Part shown: positions 2,118-15,371 of the stretch, one piece after another
Numbering within the stretch: position 1 is the first letter of the stretch
How the letters are laid out: the number at the start of each line of letters is the position of its first letter
Virus record (IMG/VR): IMGVR_UViG_2579778778_000003
Reading direction: 5' to 3' (one strand)
Source of the DNA: a virus
Taxonomy: Duplodnaviria; Heunggongvirae; Uroviricota; Caudoviricetes
DNA: 15,371 bases
Program-made: the position numbers and the translations under genes
Notes under the pieces: model-generated
Database searches by the model: none
Told to the model about the DNA's origin: nothing
The model's input: the letters and a program-made list of their open reading frames with translations, nothing else

Positions 2118-3215
2118 TTAGAACTGGTAAACCAGACCTACAGCAACGATGTCATCAGTGCTTACACCGAGTGCTTTAGTGAAGTCATTTTTGTCAAGCA
2201 GGTTGATTTTGTAATCAACGAAAGTAGACATATTTTTGTTGAAGTAATAGGTTGCACCTACATCAACATATTTGACTAAGTCCTGATCGCCCCATACTCC
2301 AAGATCCTTACCTTTAGATTGCAGGTAAGCAACGGACGGACGCAGACCGAAATCGAACTGATATTGTGCAACAGCTTCGAAGTTTTGAGCTTTATTAGCA
2401 ACGAAGTGATCAGCAAATACAGTCATATTCTGGGTTTCAGAATAGGTAGTGGCCAGGTAAATGTTGTTAGCGTCATATTTCAGACCTGCGGCCCAAACTT
2501 CTGCATTTTTACCGGAAGCAAATACTTCAGGAAGAACTTTCCCTGCATTAACTTGAGTGTCGGTACGATCAGATTTCGCATAAGTTGCACCGATACCGAA
2601 TCCTTCGTATTCATAGGTAGCAGAGAAACCGAAGCCATCACCGTTACCTTCGGTGTAGTTATCGAAATCGCTACGATCGTTTTTGCCTTGGTACTGAGCA
2701 GCAAAGTTCAGACCATCAACCAGACCAAAGAAGTCGTTGTTACGATAGGTTGCAACACCAGTGGTGCGACCAGTCATGAACACATCTGTTTGGGTCCAGG
2801 TATCGCCACCGAATTCTGGCAGAACGTCAGTCCACGCACCGATGTCGTATGCTACACCGTAGTTACGGCCGTAATCGATTGAGCCGTAGTCACCGAATTT
2901 CAGGCCTGCAAATGCAAGACGGGTTTTGTCTTTGGAGGAACCTTGAGATTCAGCGCGGTTGCCTTTGAATTCATATTCCCACTGACCGAAACCAGTCAGC
3001 TGATCGTTGATTTGGGTTTCGCCTTTGAAGCCCAGACGAACATAAGTAGTATCACCATCATCTGCATCGTTAGAGGAAAAGTAGTGCTTGGCATTAACTT
3101 TCCCGTACAGATCCAGCTTGTTACTGTCTTTATTATAAATTTCAGCTGCCTGAGCAGACATCGCCATCAGTACTGATGCAGCTACAGCAGAAATTGCCAC
3201 TGTTAATTTTTTCAT
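2118..3215 (-). CDS. nmpC: outer-membrane general porin NmpC (OmpC/OmpF/PhoE family), full length with signal peptide
   Basis: 365-aa ORF; signal peptide [23 protein letters not shown] then AEIYNKD; C-terminal VYQF; AGGG Shine-Dalgarno upstream of ATG at 3215; matches NmpC as remembered. Confidence 0.93.
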
Positions 3216-3750: not shown

Positions 3751-3803
3751 GCGATACGTTGTATTCCCTCAATTTACACCCGCTTTGTCTGCGAGGTGGG
3801 GTT

Positions 3804-4019
3804 ATGAAATTCATGGATAAGTTAACAACTGGAGTCGCCTATGGCACCTCAGCAGGTAGTGCCGGTTACTGGTTTTTACAGCTGCTCGATAAAGTCACTC
3901 CCTCACAGTGGGCAGCAATAGGTGTGCTGGGTAGCCTGGTATTTGGCCTGCTGACGTACCTGACAAACCTTTATTTCAAGATTAAAGAAGATAAGCGCAA
4001 GGCTGCGAGAGGTGAATAA
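3804..4019 (+). CDS. essD: class II holin (pinholin, phage 21 S family) with dual-start motif
   Basis: ATG at 3804 with GAGGTG SD; second in-frame ATG at 3813 (M-K-F-M, the antiholin/holin dual start); product [25 protein letters not shown]... has two TM segments and a charged C-terminus; stop overlaps the endolysin start (TAATG). Confidence 0.9.
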
Positions 4020-7785: not shown

Positions 7786-10244
<2,459 letters not shown>

Positions 10245-10338
10245 AAACAGCCTATGACAATGCCGAGAAACGTCTGCAGAAAGATCAGAACGGTGCGGAT
10301 ATCCCTGGCAAAGACACCTTTACGAAAAATATTGGTGC

Positions 10339-10872
10339 CTGGCCGGAACTAATGAATTTATTGGTGAAGGTGATGCATATATTCCGCCTCATACAGGTCT
10401 GCCAGCAAACAGTACCGATATTGCACCACCAGATATTCCTGCTGGCTTTGTGGCTGTTTTCAACAGTGATGAGGCATCGTGGCATCTCGTTGAAGATCAT
10501 CGGGGTAAAACGGTTTATGACGTGGCTTCCGGCGACGCGTTATTTATTTCTGAACTCGGCTCATTACCGGAAAATGTCACCTGGTTATCCCCGGAAGGGG
10601 AGTTTCAGAAGTGGAACGGCACAGCTTGGGTGAAGGATACGGAAGCAGAAAAACTGTTCCGGATCCGTGAGGCGGAAGAAACAAAAAACAGCCTGATGCA
10701 GGTAGCCAGTGAGCATATAGCGCCGCTTCAGGATGCTGTGGATCTGGAGATCGCAACGGAGGAAGAAACCTTGTTGCTGGAAGCCTGGAAAAAGTATCGG
10801 GTGTTGCTGAACCGTGTTGATACATCAACTGCACCTGATATTGAGTGGCCTACGAACCCTGTCAGGGAGTAA
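10339..10872 (+). pseudogene. tfaD: tail fibre assembly protein Tfa, 5'-truncated (first ~14 codons replaced)
   Basis: Translation from ~10339 ([54 protein letters not shown]...EWPTNPVRE) matches lambda Tfa from residue ~15 onward; no in-frame start upstream; only an internal GTG at 10450. Confidence 0.75.
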
Positions 10873-10926
10873 TCATTGGGATTATGCCGCAGCACGTCTT
10901 AAGCAAGAACGTGCTGCGGTTGGATG

Positions 10927-11595
10927 CTATTTTTTCCCTGAAGCGGAAAACATTACTACAGTACCTTGAACCTTGGTTTTAACATTCTCGAAATGCTCTG
11001 AGAGTATATGTGTTAAGCCTTCTTCGGAATCTTTTGTGTTTGAAAAGATGCCTTTCTGATTGTAAATGCGCATCAGTTTTTGACCGAAGCTATTGTGCAC
11101 AACTCCATCGCCAAGAATTGTGGCTCCGTATAGAGTTCCATCGTCAGTTAAGGCCTGCGCCGCATTGCGTATTACACAGCTTTTTGTAGATATATTTCCA
11201 GGCAGGCAGTGAAGAAGGTAAAACATGGAAATGGAATCAAATTGACCATGTAACGCCGCGGGATAAGGTTCAAAAACATCATGGCTAATTTTATGTTTAA
11301 TTTTTGATTCCCCAGCCCTTGTAGATGCCGCGTTCAGGCTAGCTTCGTTCAAATCCATTAAAGATATCAGACTACTCTCAGGTACGTGAGTAAGGTAAAA
11401 CCCAGTTCCAACACCAATATCCAGATGGTTGTTACCTAAATGTTCCAGAAAGTGTGGAAGAAGGTGTTCCTTTGTAGGACATCCCCATGCAAGCCGATTT
11501 GATACTCCCAAAACCCACCAGTCATAAAGCTTTAGGGTAAGTGGTGTGTAAATTTTAGCCCCATCATCTGTGTTTTTTTTCATTAATTTCACCAT
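10927..11595 (-). CDS. ybcY: class I SAM-dependent methyltransferase (YbcY-like)
   Basis: 222-aa ORF (likely true start at the second ATG, 11583, which has GGTGA upstream); motif I LDIGVGTG; AT-rich relative to flanking phage genes. Confidence 0.75.
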   Translation of the reverse strand: MVKLMKKNTDDGAKIYTPLTLKLYDWWVLGVSNRLAWGCPTKEHLLPHFLEHLGNNHLDIGVGTGFYLTHVPESSLISLMDLNEASLNAASTRAGESKIKHKISHDVFEPYPAALHGQFDSISMFYLLHCLPGNISTKSCVIRNAAQALTDDGTLYGATILGDGVVHNSFGQKLMRIYNQKGIFSNTKDSEEGLTHILSEHFENVKTKVQGTVVMFSASGKK

Positions 11596-11651
11596 GTTAT
11601 AGTTTTATTTGTGAATTAAATCAATTATGGCGATGAATTACAAGGGGTTAA

Positions 11652-11957
11652 ATGCTGCCGCAGCATAGCGATATTGAAATAGCCTGGTATGCTTCGATAC
11701 AACAGGAGCCGAATGGCTGGAAGACCGTCACCACACAGTTCTACATCCAGGAATTCAGTGAGTATATTGCGCCACTGCAGGATGCTGTAGATCTGGAAAT
11801 CGCAACGGAGGAAGAAAGATCGTTGCTGGAGGCATGGAATAAATATCGGGTATTGTTGAATCGAGTTGATACATCAGTAGCTCTGGGTATGAAGCTGTTT
11901 GTAACTCATGTTACAGTAACAGTTATTACTATCTCGAAGGTGCAAAATGTATATTGA
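11652..11957 (+). pseudogene. tfaX: tail fibre assembly protein fragment (C-terminal Tfa homology only)
   Basis: Residues [37 protein letters not shown] duplicate the C-terminal Tfa segment found at 10709-10827; the N-terminal part is unrelated to Tfa. Confidence 0.65.
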
Positions 11958-12084
11958 TTTGATATTTTATAAATTTACTTCGAATCTGGCACGTCAACTT
12001 TTGATTAAAGTAATATCAGTTTTCGGCGAAAAAAGGACCGTGTACATGAGACGATTTCATACAATAATAACAAAAATATGAATA

Positions 12085-12120
12085 TGCTCCCAATGCAATA
12101 TATGTTTTGCATTGGGAGCA
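12085..12120 (-). terminator. perfect 14-bp stem hairpin with downstream U-run on the minus strand; candidate terminator of the vgrG-effector transcript
   Basis: TGCTCCCAATGCAA-tatatgtt-TTGCATTGGGAGCA; on the minus strand followed by TATTCATATTTTTGTTATTATTG; 20 nt downstream of the stop at 12141. Confidence 0.5.
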
Positions 12121-12140
12121 AATAGCGGAATATTTTGAAA

Positions 12141-13016
12141 TTATTGTATTTCTGCTTCAGAATTTCCTGGGCAGTATATATTTTCTATTTTTTGTGGAGT
12201 GATCAGGTGATGTACAACTGCTTTATCTACACATAAATTAACTCCGGTGAGAGCTAATGTATGCCCATCACCATTTATTGTTAGTAACGGGCTGGAAAAT
12301 TTCTCTGCCATCTTACGGGCATTAATCCAGGGCGTTGTTGGGTCGTATTTGTGTGCTACAAACAGTAAACCAGAGGGCAGAACAGTATTTTTCAGGCGAG
12401 TTTTGTTCAGGTCGCTATGTATTGGCCATAATTCACAAAAATCAGGCAAATCGGAACGTCCATTGTCAAAGTTAATAGCCGGGAAGGCATTCGCAAGAGC
12501 GTCTTTTCGGGATTTTCGCTCTTCTGGTGTTAATTGCTCATCCCCCTGATCTACACAGAGGATTACCCCCGAAGCATCGCTTGACTCTTCTGAGGCTATC
12601 GGAGCACTGAGCGCAGTTTCAATTTCATTACTGACAATCCCCTGAGAGAACTGGCGTATGGCAGTTGCAAGGGTTGGCCATGATGAACGCCATAGCAGAA
12701 GGTCTGTTGTTAATGATATGAGTTCATCTGAAGATATATTTTCTCTCTTACTGTCTAATAAAGGTTTGTGATGTAATTTTGATAATAGCTCATGGAACTG
12801 AGTTATTGCCTTATCTCTGTCTGAAGAAAGCGGGCAACTTTTTGTACGCGCACACCAGGATGCAAAGCGATCAAACGTTTCCTGATAACTCTGTGCCTGT
12901 TTGAGTTGCCATGTGAAGTTGTCCTCCAGGTCATCAGAAACTCCGCTCAAAGGATCTATGCTTCCTGCATGAGTGATCGGCCCGTTCGCCGATAGCCGCT
13001 GGCGTGGTACGTCAGT
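12141..13016 (-). pseudogene. C-terminal portion of an alpha/beta-hydrolase of the TAP-like (S33 peptidase) family; 5' part missing
   Basis: C-terminus has the TAP-like signature (CELWP...LLFVAHKYDPTTPWINARKMAEKF...LLTINGDGHTLALTGVNLCVDKAVVHHL) with the Asp and His catalytic region, but no GxSxG nucleophile. The frame is open upstream to 13016 without an ATG; the track ORF begins at a TTG. Confidence 0.5.
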
Positions 13017-13309
13017 TTAAGCCGGATCCCGTCGGTGTGACTGACACCCGTGATCCGGTACTGGCTGTCGCGCTCAAACGTGATGCGGTTGCTGGCGGTG
13101 TCGCTCATCCCGCCCAGCATGTACATCCGGTCATTGGGGCTGTGTGCCAGGCGGTCATCGCTGGTATCGTCAGTCACCGGGTGGCGCAGACGCATTCCCG
13201 GAAAGGCGTCATAAAAGAAGCGGCTGCTCAGTGCATCCCTGTCGAACAGCTCCAGATAATCATCGCGGCGGCGCAGAATGTACTGGGCGTGATACGGGTT
13301 AGCTGGCAT
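12956..13309 (-). pseudogene. possible Rhs / YD-repeat fragment
   Basis: 117-aa ORF with two YD-repeat-like segments (FFYDAFPGMRLRHPVTDD; YRITGVSHTDGIRLKLTYH); a stop lies 2 codons upstream of its ATG; overlaps both neighbouring frames. Assignment is by motif pattern only. Confidence 0.3.
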
Positions 13310-13625
13310 ACATCAGCGCAGGCACCAGAACCAGCGCATAAGGGCCGGTGGCACAGGCGGCCATAATCAGGCAACCTTCTGCGATGGTCACTATCGCCCC
13401 CAGCACGGCCCCTGCCAGCGCCCCCAAAAAACTCTTGTGCTGAATTTCATCGCCCAGCCTGGCGGCGGGGGGGCCGGACTTTTTTGATGCCAACATCTGT
13501 GCAATGGCTTTGTCGTTGGCTGCCCGTTTCATCTGGCTGGCGACCATCGCCTGCTGTGACAGCATTCGCATTGCCAGCGTACCGCCTGCGGTCGCTCCCT
13601 GTGGCCCGCCTGGTCCTTCACTCAT
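13299..13625 (-). CDS. N-terminal prePAAR-TMD fragment of a T6SS effector (class I, Eag-dependent type); PAAR and body missing
   Basis: prePAAR motif AARLGDEIQH (13437-13466) directly followed by a Gly/Ala-rich transmembrane stretch (FLGALAGAVLGAIVTIAEGCLIMAACATGPYALVLVPALM), then a stop; no PAAR repeats follow. The true start may be the internal ATG at 13496. Confidence 0.55.
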   Translation of the reverse strand: MSEGPGGPQGATAGGTLAMRMLSQQAMVASQMKRAANDKAIAQMLASKKSGPPAARLGDEIQHKSFLGALAGAVLGAIVTIAEGCLIMAACATGPYALVLVPALMYAS

Positions 13626-13644
13626 GTGTTATCCCTCGTTTATG

Positions 13645-14106
13645 TCAGCGCGGCTGGTCCTTTTGGATGTCATTCTCCGGTGGCAACGGGGTGAAGCTCT
13701 TTATCACCTCCAGCAGCATCGTCTTTTGACTGTTCTTCAGGGATAAGGAGGTGCTGAAAGTGAAGGTCAGCAGCGTATCTCCACGCCGCTGGAATACGGC
13801 TATCTGGCTAATCCGCCCCTGATTCCCCTCATCTTCCGGACCGTTCCAGGAATAATCCAGCAGCCAGGCCGGGGCCTCTGCCAGAGTGATTTCCCGGCAG
13901 GCATGTTCGGTGTACCCATCAAGTTTGCCCTGGTACAGCGCCAGCGTTTCCTGGTACAGCTCTGGTGTCAGGGTTCCCTGTGGAACGGCTTCGCGGGTAA
14001 TGACCAGGTTGATGCCACTGTTATCTGTGGACACCAGGACCTGCATTGACTGATCCTGCCATTGAGACGGCAGTTGAATGTGGCCTTCATTAAAAGTGAA
14101 CTGCAT
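13645..14106 (-). CDS. Eag-family effector chaperone (DUF1795)
   Basis: 153 aa; N-terminus MQFTFNEGHIQLPSQWQDQS typical of DUF1795/Eag adaptors; lies between vgrG and the prePAAR effector, the canonical arrangement. Confidence 0.75.
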   Translation of the reverse strand: MQFTFNEGHIQLPSQWQDQSMQVLVSTDNSGINLVITREAVPQGTLTPELYQETLALYQGKLDGYTEHACREITLAEAPAWLLDYSWNGPEDEGNQGRISQIAVFQRRGDTLLTFTFSTSLSLKNSQKTMLLEVIKSFTPLPPENDIQKDQPR

Positions 14107-14133
14107 AAAATACTCCCTGATAATCTGAGTGAA

Positions 14134-15371
14134 TTAGTTGATGAAAACAGAACCGCCCACGATGGTGATGCCATCCTTCGACAGCCTGATTACCGTCGAT
14201 TCCCCGACCTGTAGCTGAATGCCATCCGGCGTCAGCGCAATTTTGCTTTCCTCCACGGCCAGCAAAATTTCCTTAATCGCCGTATAAGCCTGTATACCGT
14301 CGCCTTCGCCACCATTGTTTACAGCGTCAACATGCACCGAACCGGCAATCGTGCCTCTGTCCTGAAAGACATCCTCAGATAAAGACCCTTTCAGTACTCC
14401 GGTGATCTTGTGGCCTTTTTCCACCGTAAGAAGGCGGTTACCTTCCTGGATCGTGACCGTCTGGTCATTTTTTACGGTTTCGCGATGATCGTGTTTTACG
14501 GTGGTGGTACGGTCGTTGAGCACTTCGGTATCCATGTTCTTCTGCGCGTGGATGTAGACCTGTTCTCTCCCTGTCGCATCATCAAACTTCAGCTCATTAA
14601 ATCCGCTGCCCATGTACGTTTTGGAGCGGATGGTCATCTGCGTCTTTGTTCCCGGCAGGCTGCCGGGGGTGCGGTTTTCCTGGTGGTAGGTGCGCCCCAT
14701 AATGATCGGCTGGTCCGGATCGCCGTTGAGGAAGTCTACAATCACCTCCTGACCCACACGCGGTATCGCCAGGTGGCCAAAACCGGTGCCTGCCCACGCC
14801 TGTGCCACACGGATCCAGCACGAACTGTCTTGGTCTGCCGGGTTATAACGGTCCCAGTTGAACTTCACCCGCACGCGACCATGTTCGTCGCAGAAGATTT
14901 CCTCGCCTGCCGGTCCTGTCACGACAGCGCTCTGCGGGCCGTCGACCAGCGGTTTCAGCAACGGCTGTGGTCGCCATGTTCTGTCTGCCGGGATCACCGC
15001 AAAATGGTTCTCCAGCGCCGTCCCCGCTCCCTGCCGTCCTGGCACCGCCTGTGGCTGTTCGCCGTGCAGTTCACTTGCCACCACCTGCCATTCCCGGTTC
15101 AGGTTCGCCTGCGGATGCCCCGTCAGCACAATTCGCCGTCCCGGCCATATCTCCGGCGAGCGGCTCATTCCCCGCGCGGTTTCTGCGTTGTTTCGCCAGC
15201 CGTCCATCTGCCAGCGGGCAAAGTTCTGCCCGTGGGCGCTCTTGAAACGTCCGGGGTAGTCATACACTTCATACTGCGTGCGCTGGTAGTCCTGGTGCTG
15301 GCCTTCCTGTTCAAAACGTCCGGCCCAGCCGGGGCGTTTAAAGGTGTAGTCTTTGGTCACCACGGAAGAAG
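14134..15371 (-). CDS. vgrG: VgrG spike protein, C-terminal ~410 residues (gene continues beyond the window edge)
   Basis: Frame open to the window end; gp27/gp5-like region (NWDRYNPADQDSSCWIRVAQAWAGTGFGHLAIPRVGQEVIVDFLNGDPDQPIIMGRTYHQENRTPGSLP) and C-terminal beta-helix/DUF2345-like region ending GSVFIN. Confidence 0.9.
   Translation of the reverse strand, partial: SSVVTKDYTFKRPGWAGRFEQEGQHQDYQRTQYEVYDYPGRFKSAHGQNFARWQMDGWRNNAETARGMSRSPEIWPGRRIVLTGHPQANLNREWQVVASELHGEQPQAVPGRQGAGTALENHFAVIPADRTWRPQPLLKPLVDGPQSAVVTGPAGEEIFCDEHGRVRVKFNWDRYNPADQDSSCWIRVAQAWAGTGFGHLAIPRVGQEVIVDFLNGDPDQPIIMGRTYHQENRTPGSLPGTKTQMTIRSKTYMGSGFNELKFDDATGREQVYIHAQKNMDTEVLNDRTTTVKHDHRETVKNDQTVTIQEGNRLLTVEKGHKITGVLKGSLSEDVFQDRGTIAGSVHVDAVNNGGEGDGIQAYTAIKEILLAVEESKIALTPDGIQLQVGESTVIRLSKDGITIVGGSVFIN

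Follow-up and report, generated by a model that had tools for sequence, protein, structure and literature searches.

The stretch of DNA analysed here, 15,371 nucleotides in length and referred to as the window, matches the DLP12 locus that E. coli AMSCJX02 carries at argU (tRNA-Arg) with 100% identity, and all of its parts are annotated there. The arrangement at the center of this study, tfaD–ybcY–tfaX, is not new: it is known from the K-12 DLP12-type prophage, whose gene order is likewise tfaD–ybcY–tfaX, and viable phages carry the order J–lom–stf–tfa–ybcY–tfaX–hydrolase–ompT–int. ybcY is present in 3832 of 5426 complete E. coli genomes (~70%), while the tfa/ybcY and ybcY/tfaX junctions occur in at least 3023 and at least 3441 E. 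coli genomes, respectively. Viable lambdoid phages carry the gene as well; just 15 phage records contain ybcY and 46 contain the same tfa. The K-12 locus, tfaD–ybcY–tfaX(–appY–ompT), shares with the window the argU site, gene order, orientation, and repeats, and the two are 96–97% identical in DNA over tfaD–ybcY–tfaX. They differ in that ybcY is intact in the window and frameshifted in K-12, that the window retains the terminase gene, W, and a portal fragment, that tfaX in the window has no internal stop but has lost its native 3' end, and that the downstream DNA consists of a truncated alpha/beta hydrolase gene and T6SS/Rhs fragments in the window but of appY–ompT–envY in K-12.

On the left, a 5' fragment of a lambda-family portal gene (9885–10193, plus strand), which matches positions 2–75 of 354 in the Phage_portal_2 profile and is labelled “phage portal protein, missing C-terminus” by PGAP, is the left edge of a large deletion that took out head and tail genes. 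Fused to it is a 3' fragment of stf, the side tail fibre gene (10193–10338, plus strand, frame-2 translation; “phage tail protein, missing N- and C-terminus” in PGAP). These 146 nucleotides of stf are all that precedes tfaD, and no intact fibre gene lies upstream of it in the window; in intact phages such as PhiR26_1, tfa directly follows an intact tail fibre gene. tfaD itself (10339–10872, plus strand) is a lambda-type tail fibre assembly gene without its first 17 codons. Its product is 97% identical to residues 18–194 of the 194-aa Tfa of PhiR26_1 and matches the Caudo_TAP profile (PF02413) over its full length (positions 1–130 of 131; E = 2.3e-45, 154.4 bits against a cut-off of 22.1). Just past the tfaD stop codon, a strong hairpin followed by a U-run (10886–10919, plus strand) looks like the terminator of the late operon; the segment 10866–10935 folds at −28.5 kcal/mol (z = −4.84), and none of 200 shuffled sequences folded as well.

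Beyond this hairpin lies ybcY (10927–11595, minus strand), an intact class I SAM-dependent methyltransferase gene with an open reading frame of 222 aa, although the true start codon is probably at 11583, giving a product of 218 aa from a start that would be almost leaderless. At 40.8% GC the gene is AT-rich relative to tfaD (49.4%) and the terminase gene (53.9%), which bears out the earlier note's description of an AT-rich, oppositely oriented methyltransferase gene between repeats. The spacer between the divergent ybcY and tfaX contains a sigma-70 promoter-like site directed towards ybcY, TTGATT-17-TATAAC (11596–11624, minus strand), which has one exact match in the window against 0.01 expected by chance. 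The same hexamers are listed for an RNAP-sigma70 SELEX peak, overlapping H-NS, in the K-12 ybcY/tfaX spacer, where a promoter is also directed towards tfaX (PMC3946193); the support for ybcY expression is thus in vitro SELEX from K-12, a strain other than that of the window. No canonical terminator was found 3' of ybcY in the window. ybcY remains intact, with a dN/dS of ~0.1, in minimal prophage remnants of the form int'–'tfa–ybcY–ompT, an estimate of purifying selection within E. coli that comes from just 5–7 synonymous and 2 non-synonymous changes. Other prophages carry different cargo in the slot behind tfa, and in the loci L020 and L021 tfa is followed by other cargo or by none. Orthologues of ybcY stand alone on the chromosomes of Salmonella and Enterobacter, and the family is strongly conserved. 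The neighborhoods of these orthologues offer no functional clue, and in the literature on ybcY and tfaX we found no functional study; where ybcY is named in papers, its function is not their subject. Composition, promoter, and position support the view that ybcY is an AT-rich, moron-like passenger gene with its own putative promoter, 3' of lambdoid tail-fibre genes. Its ancestor was probably a member of a gene family resident on the chromosomes of Enterobacterales.

The profile search for the methyltransferase class that the earlier note had proposed was carried out, and it returned a resemblance to small-molecule enzymes, with generic matches and no specific family. The YbcY open reading frame scores above the cut-offs of Pfam Methyltransf_12, 23, 25, and 11, and its fold is the seven-stranded, Rossmann-like one of class I SAM methyltransferases. 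The motifs DIGVGTG, MDLN, HDVF, and DSISMFYLLHCLPG are invariant in 26 homologues, comprising the SAM-binding motif I (GxGxG) and the acidic and aromatic motifs. In sequence and in fold, YbcY best matches the juvenile-hormone-acid, UbiG/Coq5, phospho(lipid)ethanolamine, and natural-product methyltransferases. Identity of YbcY to the small-molecule class I enzymes (JHAMT, UbiG/Coq5, PmtA/PMT, DhpI, and natural-product C-, O-, and N-methyltransferases) is only 10–21%, and its family-specific invariant motifs YDWWVL, LHCLPG, and YNxKGIFSN have no characterized counterpart among them. Sequence and profile searches of the PDB gave generic methyltransferases only, NCBIfam gave only sub-threshold matches (CpaM and RquA at 17 bits each, with cut-offs of 175–180), and PADLOC gave just a weak mad2 match (E = 0.0033). 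The 222 residues contain neither a (D/N/S)PP(Y/F/W) nor a PCQ motif, a lone ENV occurring without PCQ, and no target-recognition domain; DNA methyltransferases are absent among the best structural matches listed. YbcY thus resembles a small-molecule-type methyltransferase rather than a DNA methyltransferase. No restriction endonuclease or specificity gene lies beside ybcY, its neighbors being tfa relics and the alpha/beta hydrolase gene, just as had been remarked before; the remark is correct but beside the point, because YbcY is without DNA-methyltransferase motifs and resembles small-molecule enzymes.

A repeat search of the window found a single family of direct repeats, at 10696–10827 in tfaD and 11745–11876 in tfaX (both plus strand), 132 nt long, 84% identical, and spaced 1049 nt apart. 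The ~119-bp repeats of ~85% identity noted earlier hold up within this longer alignment: 10709–10827 and 11758–11876 match at 102 of 119 bases (85.7%), while the best ungapped identity of a 119-nt segment over 400 random window offsets reached at most 0.445 (mean 0.374). The assignment of the repeats to the C-terminal coding segment of Tfa is likewise upheld, since both copies are in frame, encoding 44 aa each, and share a motif conserved across the Tfa proteins of lambda, P2, P1, and Mu; the left copy codes for the conserved C-terminal domain of Tfa and the right copy is a relic of it. According to PMC9608196, which cites North et al. 2019, Tfa chaperones combine a variable N-terminal fibre-binding domain with a conserved C-terminal domain, and the repeated segment corresponds to the latter as described there for TfaMu. 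The two copies differ at 21 sites, 14 of which are third codon positions, and the dN/dS between them is 0.15. This mostly third-position divergence argues that the copies diverged as working genes in different phages. As read from these alignments, each repeat is the portion of a tfa gene that codes for the conserved C-terminal (trimerisation) domain, the two genes stem from different phage lineages, and the pair is not the footprint of an insertion.

The right-hand copy sits in tfaX (11652–11957, plus strand), an open reading frame of 101 aa that appears composite along its length. phrog_3893 matches residues 3–37, while the tfa PHROGs and Caudo_TAP match only residues 29–77; in the PF02413 profile, residues 31–77 cover only positions 75–121, and the N-terminal fibre-binding domain is absent. 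The start codon and the ~33 codons that follow (11652 to ~11750) belong to a small phage ORF of the phrog_3893 type. In Citrobacter this ORF is found in full, at 80 aa, adjoining a ybcY homologue, and ORF and spacer are ~92% identical to the window up to ~11750. The module shared with Citrobacter extends from ~10916, at the 3' foot of the terminator-like hairpin in the alignment, to ~11750, and is asymmetric with respect to the repeats, beginning 89 nt beyond the left copy and abutting the right one; in Citrobacter it adjoins DinI and other genes, not tfa. tfaX is, judged by sequence, a chimera in which the promoter and first ~33 codons of the small phage ORF are joined to the 3' third of a tfa gene, and it is better read in this way than as a simple truncated tfa. 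Its start codon is preceded by an inherited Shine-Dalgarno sequence, AAGGGG, and it has a PHROG of its own, phrog_2341. The window, several phages, and strain 2779 all have an uninterrupted frame, but K-12 tfaX contains an in-frame stop, and the native 3' end is decayed or lost in the window. Compared with strain 2779, tfaX of the window carries four differences, three of them non-synonymous. tfaX is absent from UPEC-type remnants that retain ybcY, and PGAP treats it as a pseudogene.

The native 3' end of tfa is replaced by an AT-rich spacer (11877–12140; 32% GC) that contains a terminator-like hairpin (12085–12120, minus strand) 3' of the hydrolase gene. The latter (12141–12950, minus strand) consists of the C-terminal 269 codons of a TAP-like alpha/beta hydrolase gene, with matches to Abhydrolase_4 and Abhydrolase_1, and covers positions 201–464 of 464 in phrog_20134. 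The full protein has 494 aa in ev243 and PhiR26_1, and PGAP labels the gene “missing N-terminus” in the locus identical to the window. In the phage b-region, this hydrolase gene, truncated in the window, follows as the next piece of cargo.

Comparison of alleles showed that tfaX changes partner at nt 85 in K-12 and at nt 132 between the window and strain 2779. In ev243, the conserved segment is where a tfa relic, cut at its 5' side and with the same 1049-nt repeat spacing, meets unrelated tail genes. That alleles switch partners at several points within a segment of ~180 nt supports the idea that this segment acts as a recombination junction. Whether the repeats delete what lies between them, as had been suggested, was examined with a synthetic junction joining 10400–10761 to 11811–12140. 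Among 20,395 E. coli and 50,697 phage records, no product of such a deletion, counted as coverage of at least 80% of the junction, was detected, a result that applies to the hydrolase-type downstream context, since deletions in a downstream setting of K-12 type or potB type would look like plain tfa genes. H22 and H24, which have a full tfa with a tfaX-like 3' end, were considered as deletion alleles and rejected; they are other prophages with other cargo or none.

These features are probably best explained by a defective lambdoid prophage of DLP12 type at argU, whose late region has its right-hand end in this locus and in which a passenger module behind the tail-fibre terminator has been joined to the relic of a second tfa. 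The module would be made up of ybcY, read from the minus strand, its promoter spacer, and ~33 initial codons of the divergent small ORF (ORF-X). It would lie just past the terminator of the tail-fibre operon and run, on its far side, into the 3' third of another, different tfa. We infer that in a resident phage the upstream part of the tail-fibre region gave way to a donor segment (stf–tfa–terminator–ybcY–ORF-X...). The right join would have arisen when ORF-X recombined illegitimately, in a microhomology-type crossover, with the middle of the resident tfa at ~11745–11765, where the shared microhomology is short and read from one alignment, and the 3' end of the resident tfa would have been left behind as the relic tfaX. 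Later exchanges may then have reused the conserved segment, giving rise to alternative upstream tail modules, as in ev243, and to alternative downstream DNA, namely the hydrolase gene in the window, appY in K-12, and the host gene potB in strain 2779. This order of events is drawn from a handful of alleles rather than from a phylogeny, and no donor phage with tfa–ybcY–full ORF-X was found. ybcY, a Rossmann-fold methyltransferase of the small-molecule type, would be expressed on its own from the putative sigma-70 promoter with its reported H-NS overlap and kept intact by selection.

The repeats could instead mark the site at which ybcY was inserted into or behind tfa with duplication of the tfa 3' end, leaving a footprint able to delete the cargo by homologous recombination. 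Direct repeats 1049 nt apart do bracket an AT-rich gene on the opposite strand, and this distance does not vary among ev243, PhiR26_1, and the window. We nevertheless consider this improbable: the 16% divergence between the copies is mostly synonymous, while an in situ duplicate turned relic should decay neutrally; the cargo does not end symmetrically with respect to the repeats; a foreign ORF has contributed the 5' end to which the right copy is fused; no E. coli or phage record covers the deletion junction to the required extent; and the longest exact run common to both repeats is 19 nt, which makes them a poor RecA substrate. The same observations divide the earlier proposal of a cargo gene captured at a tail-fibre recombination hotspot, in that ybcY does appear to be a passenger and the tfa segment does switch partners, but the repeats are not the footprint of the capture. 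In size (~130 nt), direct orientation, and position at the 3' end of a tail-related gene, the repeats also recall the VR/TR pair of a diversity-generating retroelement aimed at a tail-fibre-related gene. This reading was rejected as scarcely credible, given the mismatch spectrum and the lack of any reverse transcriptase gene in the window: the mismatches are not specific to adenine, falling at A in 9 of 21 cases in tfaX and 3 of 21 in tfaD, and the repeated segment is the conserved rather than the variable part of Tfa. Two neighboring tfa-derived segments with a motif shared by the Tfa homologues of Mu, P1, and P2 could also be the degenerate remains of an invertible tail-fibre segment like Mu G, P1 C, or e14 P, in which two tfa genes served as alternatives. 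The copies, however, are direct and not inverted, no Gin/Cin/Pin recombinase gene is found nearby (none between tfaD and the hydrolase gene), and the gene in between encodes a methyltransferase rather than fibre C-termini, so that this origin has almost nothing to recommend it.

Two further alternatives concern the products of the locus rather than its origin. A phage-borne SAM methyltransferase without a partner gene might be an orphan DNA methyltransferase serving anti-restriction or epigenetic control, but this is very unlikely for YbcY in view of its missing catalytic motifs and target-recognition domain, its best matches in sequence and fold to small-molecule methyltransferases, and its stand-alone chromosomal orthologues in Salmonella and Enterobacter. 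tfaX, for its part, might encode a functional mini-protein, the N-terminus of ORF-X on the Tfa trimerisation domain, that hinders or aids fibre assembly; it might, for instance, work as a decoy when other phages superinfect. The inherited Shine-Dalgarno sequence and start codon, the SELEX promoter towards tfaX, the frame kept open in the window, several phages, and strain 2779, the separate PHROG, and the retention of the conserved oligomerisation domain without the fibre-binding domain all speak for such a protein. We give the idea little credence: a stop interrupts the frame in K-12, decay of the 3' end has removed the native C-terminus in the window, and alleles differ mostly at non-synonymous sites, all of which argues that tfaX is a pseudogene, and the ORF is missing from UPEC-type remnants that keep ybcY and is called a pseudogene by PGAP. 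It is equally hard to believe that TfaX expressed from the prophage acts as a dominant-negative decoy that poisons the fibre assembly of superinfecting Tfa-dependent phages, with ybcY alongside as a retained lysogenic-conversion enzyme acting on a small molecule. The Tai tail-assembly-interference systems were considered as a parallel and rejected, being unrelated to Tfa.

The passenger-module reading is in keeping with known features of lambdoid phages. Morons, a concept attributed to Hendrix and Juhala, are said to be additional genes, atypical in composition and transcribed autonomously, that have been inserted among conserved ones; examples are bor and lom of lambda and gp15 of HK97. ybcY is like them in its atypical GC content (41% against 49–54%), its putative promoter, its place beside a terminator, its presence in some related phages and absence from others, and its retention in the lysogen, but, in place of clean intergenic joints, its module has a gene relic on one flank. 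The 132 repeated nucleotides encode exactly the segment common to the Tfa (Caudo_TAP, PF02413) proteins of lambda, P2, P1, and Mu; unlike working Tfa chaperones, tfaD is short of 17 N-terminal codons and has no fibre gene beside it to assist, and tfaX is the conserved domain alone on a foreign N-terminus. Haggård-Ljungquist reportedly described in 1992 how tail-fibre segments are exchanged horizontally among unrelated phages at conserved blocks, and Sandmeier is said to have treated the same theme, exchange at conserved sequence blocks, in 1994. Loci of the window type behave similarly in switching partners at several points in the conserved tfa block, and differ in that a nested relic has been left behind and non-tail cargo brought in.

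The locus is a textbook case of lambdoid mosaicism, with little significance beyond housekeeping. The conserved C-terminal block of tfa would serve as a recurrent recombination junction, at which nested relics record the swaps of modules, and passenger genes would build up behind the tail-fibre operon. Among these, ybcY is kept even in the most eroded DLP12 remnants beside ompT, and its being intact, conserved, and present in about 70% of complete E. coli genomes makes it a reasonable, if unremarkable, candidate for functional study.

E. coli AMSCJX02 carries, at tRNA-Arg (argU), a DLP12-type prophage to which the window is 100% identical; PGAP annotations there comprise nohD, a terminase, a head-tail joining protein, a partial portal, a partial tail protein, a tail fibre assembly protein, a class I SAM-dependent methyltransferase, a partial tail fibre assembly protein and a partial alpha/beta hydrolase. 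The feature is the long-annotated and already known tfaD–ybcY–tfaX arrangement of DLP12, which K-12 carries in the same order at 96-97% identity to the window, although the K-12 ybcY is frameshifted and is followed downstream by appY–ompT–envY. Of 5426 complete E. coli genomes, 3832 contain ybcY, at no more than four places in any one of them; the tfa/ybcY and ybcY/tfaX junctions are present in at least 3023 and at least 3441 E. coli genomes, respectively. Proteins 99-100% identical to YbcY are also encoded by lambdoid phages that are viable, among them ev243, 2G7b, PhiR26_1, Kati and Turner. Two of these phage loci were inspected, those of PhiR26_1 and ev243; both run from lom through tail-fibre genes (in PhiR26_1, stf–tfa) to ybcY(-), tfaX, alpha/beta hydrolase(-) and ompT(-), with int after ompT in ev243.

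Within the window this prophage is a defective one. The 5' part of a portal gene (9885-10193) runs into 146 nt from the 3' part of stf, which continue out of frame into tfaD, a tfa gene (to 10872) without its first 17 codons; every head and tail gene was lost through one or two large deletions. The DLP12 porin gene of the nmpC type (2118-3215, minus strand) is still an intact 365-codon ORF. On the other side, a TAP-like alpha/beta hydrolase (PADLOC candidate C3a206, E = 2e-20) runs from 12141 and is cut at 12950, adjoining Rhs/prePAAR fragments, a DcrB-like gene and vgrG on the minus strand (12141-15363 in all); this T6SS island takes the place of the DLP12 ompT–envY end in this strain. A 45-aa RefSeq "hypothetical protein" ("nucleocapsid protein" in K-12) at 10845-10982 on the plus strand extends across the stop codon of tfaD into the 3' end of ybcY and most likely does not represent a real gene.

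The direct repeats of about 119 bp and 85% identity described in the earlier note are present, 102 of 119 bases matching (85.7%) between 10709-10827 and 11758-11876. A repeat search of the window returned one direct-repeat family, 10696-10827 and 11745-11876, of 132 nt, 84% identical and 1049 nt apart start to start; at 400 random offsets within the window, 119-nt identity did not exceed 44.5%. Both copies are in frame and encode a common Tfa peptide, and their longest shared perfect run is 19 nt. Protein comparison places the repeated stretch in a block conserved in Tfa of lambda-like, P2-like, P1 and Mu-like phages (Caudo_TAP profile positions 75-121). As summarised in PMC9608196 from North et al. 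2019, the N-terminal domain of Tfa is variable and binds the fibre, while the C-terminal helical domain is conserved and thought to mediate trimerisation; the repeated stretch corresponds to the latter.

The earlier note had read the repeats as bracketing cargo captured at a tail-fibre recombination hotspot. Since 14 of the 21 differences between the copies fall at third codon positions and dN/dS is 0.15 (dS = 0.61, dN = 0.088; Nei–Gojobori), the pattern of substitution indicates that each gene was still functional as the two diverged; such synonymous-biased divergence argues against a duplication made at cargo insertion and then left to decay. In K-12 tfaD (3762-3938 of the K-12 locus, against window 10696-10872), several bases equal the tfaX copy where the window tfaD differs, and repeat identity is 87% in PhiR26_1 against 84% in the window; conversion of one copy by the other, or no more than allelic variation, could be the cause.

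The structure of tfaX also argues against capture through the repeats. Matches of its 101-aa ORF to the tfa family are confined to residues ~29-77, and residues 3-37 match phrog_3893, a 79-aa family without assigned function. Contigs of Citrobacter freundii have a homologue of ybcY (90% identical in amino acids) divergent from a complete 80-aa ORF of the phrog_3893 type, which is followed by a Peptidase_S24/UmuD-like fragment (L015 4307-4941, L017 399-1033); on its opposite side, ybcY is flanked in these contigs by DinI and CdiI-like genes. A related ORF of 79 aa occurs in a Klebsiella phage. In DNA alignment, the window from 11596 to ~11750 is ~92% identical to the Citrobacter module, covering the spacer, Shine-Dalgarno sequence, start codon and ~33 codons, and from ~11745 on it follows tfa, with a short similar stretch at the join (..CAGGAA.T.AG.. 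vs ..CAGGTAGCCAG..). By these alignments, tfaX is a chimera of the 5' part of a small phage ORF (ORF-X) and the 3' part of a tfa. At the other end, Citrobacter homology stops at ~10916, ~10 nt beyond the ybcY stop codon and at the foot of a strong hairpin 3' of the tfaD stop (-28.5 kcal/mol, z = -4.8). Because homology ends at both points, the passenger module is put at ~10916-11750; it starts 89 nt past the left repeat and abuts the right one. Target duplication does not fit these asymmetric edges.

Nor did loss of the cargo through the repeats, also proposed, find support. A synthetic deletion junction had no match covering at least 80% of it in 20,395 E. coli and 50,697 phage records, a test that covers loci with hydrolase-type downstream sequence. 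UPEC-type argU loci (L012, L013) are minimal DLP12 remnants, argU–int'–'tfa–ybcY–ompT, which retain part of int, 375 nt of tfa, ybcY in intact form and ompT, and have lost tfaX and the hydrolase. ybcY survives there where nearly all else of DLP12 is lost, so the deletions seen take the neighbours and not the cargo.

The AT-rich SAM methyltransferase reported in opposite orientation between the repeats is confirmed as a 222-codon ORF (10927-11595, minus strand) above Pfam thresholds for Methyltransf_12/23/25/11; its GC content of 40.8% lies below that of tfaD (49.4%) and of the terminase gene (53.9%). None of the residues that are invariant across 26 homologues (at 56-90% identity) is altered in YbcY; they include SAM motif I (DIGVGTG) and the family-specific YDWWVL, LHCLPG and YNxKGIFSN. 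A confident AlphaFold2 model (pLDDT 89.6, pTM 0.87) has as Foldseek neighbours juvenile-hormone-acid, phosphatidylethanolamine, phosphoethanolamine and natural-product methyltransferases (E down to 2.6e-11), with no DNA methyltransferase among the best structural matches listed; PDB sequence and profile searches gave only JHAMT and UbiG, at weak E-values. YbcY contains no (D/N/S)PP(Y/F/W) or PCQ motif, no specific NCBIfam or PADLOC family fits it, and a literature search returned no paper addressing its function. Sequence and model together indicate that YbcY most likely methylates a small molecule, and the expectation of a restriction partner was misplaced given the missing motifs and the type of structural neighbours.

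In Salmonella (near cybB and hrpA) and Enterobacter, orthologues with 56-65% identity occur on the chromosome as stand-alone genes, which suggests that a phage picked up ybcY from a chromosomal Enterobacterales gene. Against UPEC-type alleles within E. coli, dN/dS is ~0.1 on small counts. A promoter-like motif match, TTGATT-17-TATAAC, lies at 11624-11596 on the minus strand; for the spacer between ybcY and tfaX in K-12, identical hexamers are given for an RNAP-sigma70 SELEX peak with H-NS overlap (PMC3946193). Because the -10 element of the window motif directly adjoins the first ATG (11595; region 11581-11624) and every homologue begins at M5, the fifth codon, translation probably starts at 11583, giving 218 aa and a very short leader. 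With its atypical composition, predicted promoter of its own and presence/absence polymorphism, ybcY would behave as a moron, an autonomous phage passenger gene.

We propose that a resident tail-fibre region had its upstream part exchanged for a segment from a donor, with the order stf–tfa–terminator–ybcY–ORF-X. The first crossover would have fallen within homologous tail genes and the second, illegitimate, between ORF-X and the resident tfa, whose 3' third would have been left behind as tfaX. Later exchanges on both sides would have reused the conserved block. In ev243, unrelated tail genes precede the last ~130 nt of a tfa, kept at exactly 1049-nt spacing, and their join to this relic is inside the block. 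The tfaX alleles of the window, K-12 and strain 2779 are identical over the first 85 nt, past which the K-12 allele is of a third tfa type, 76% identical to the window tfaX, with an in-frame stop. Strain 2779 remains tfaX-type up to nt 132 and then retains a native tfa 3' end ahead of host potB; the window switches at nt 132 (11876) to AT-rich DNA toward the hydrolase gene.

The observation in the earlier note was correct and its interpretation partly so: cargo at a recombination-prone tail-fibre end stands, given these allele switches and the varied cargo after tfa, but the role assigned to the repeats and the restriction partner do not. The idea of a recombination hotspot is thus supported in general terms, with the conserved tfa block as a recurrent junction. 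In other prophages the slot after tfa holds other cargo (AAA ATPase and McrC) or none. In E. coli TB4019 (L020 4395-7468), the AAA ATPase and McrC, a McrBC-like restriction system, lie directly after tfa, pointing to the slot as a general cargo or defence position.
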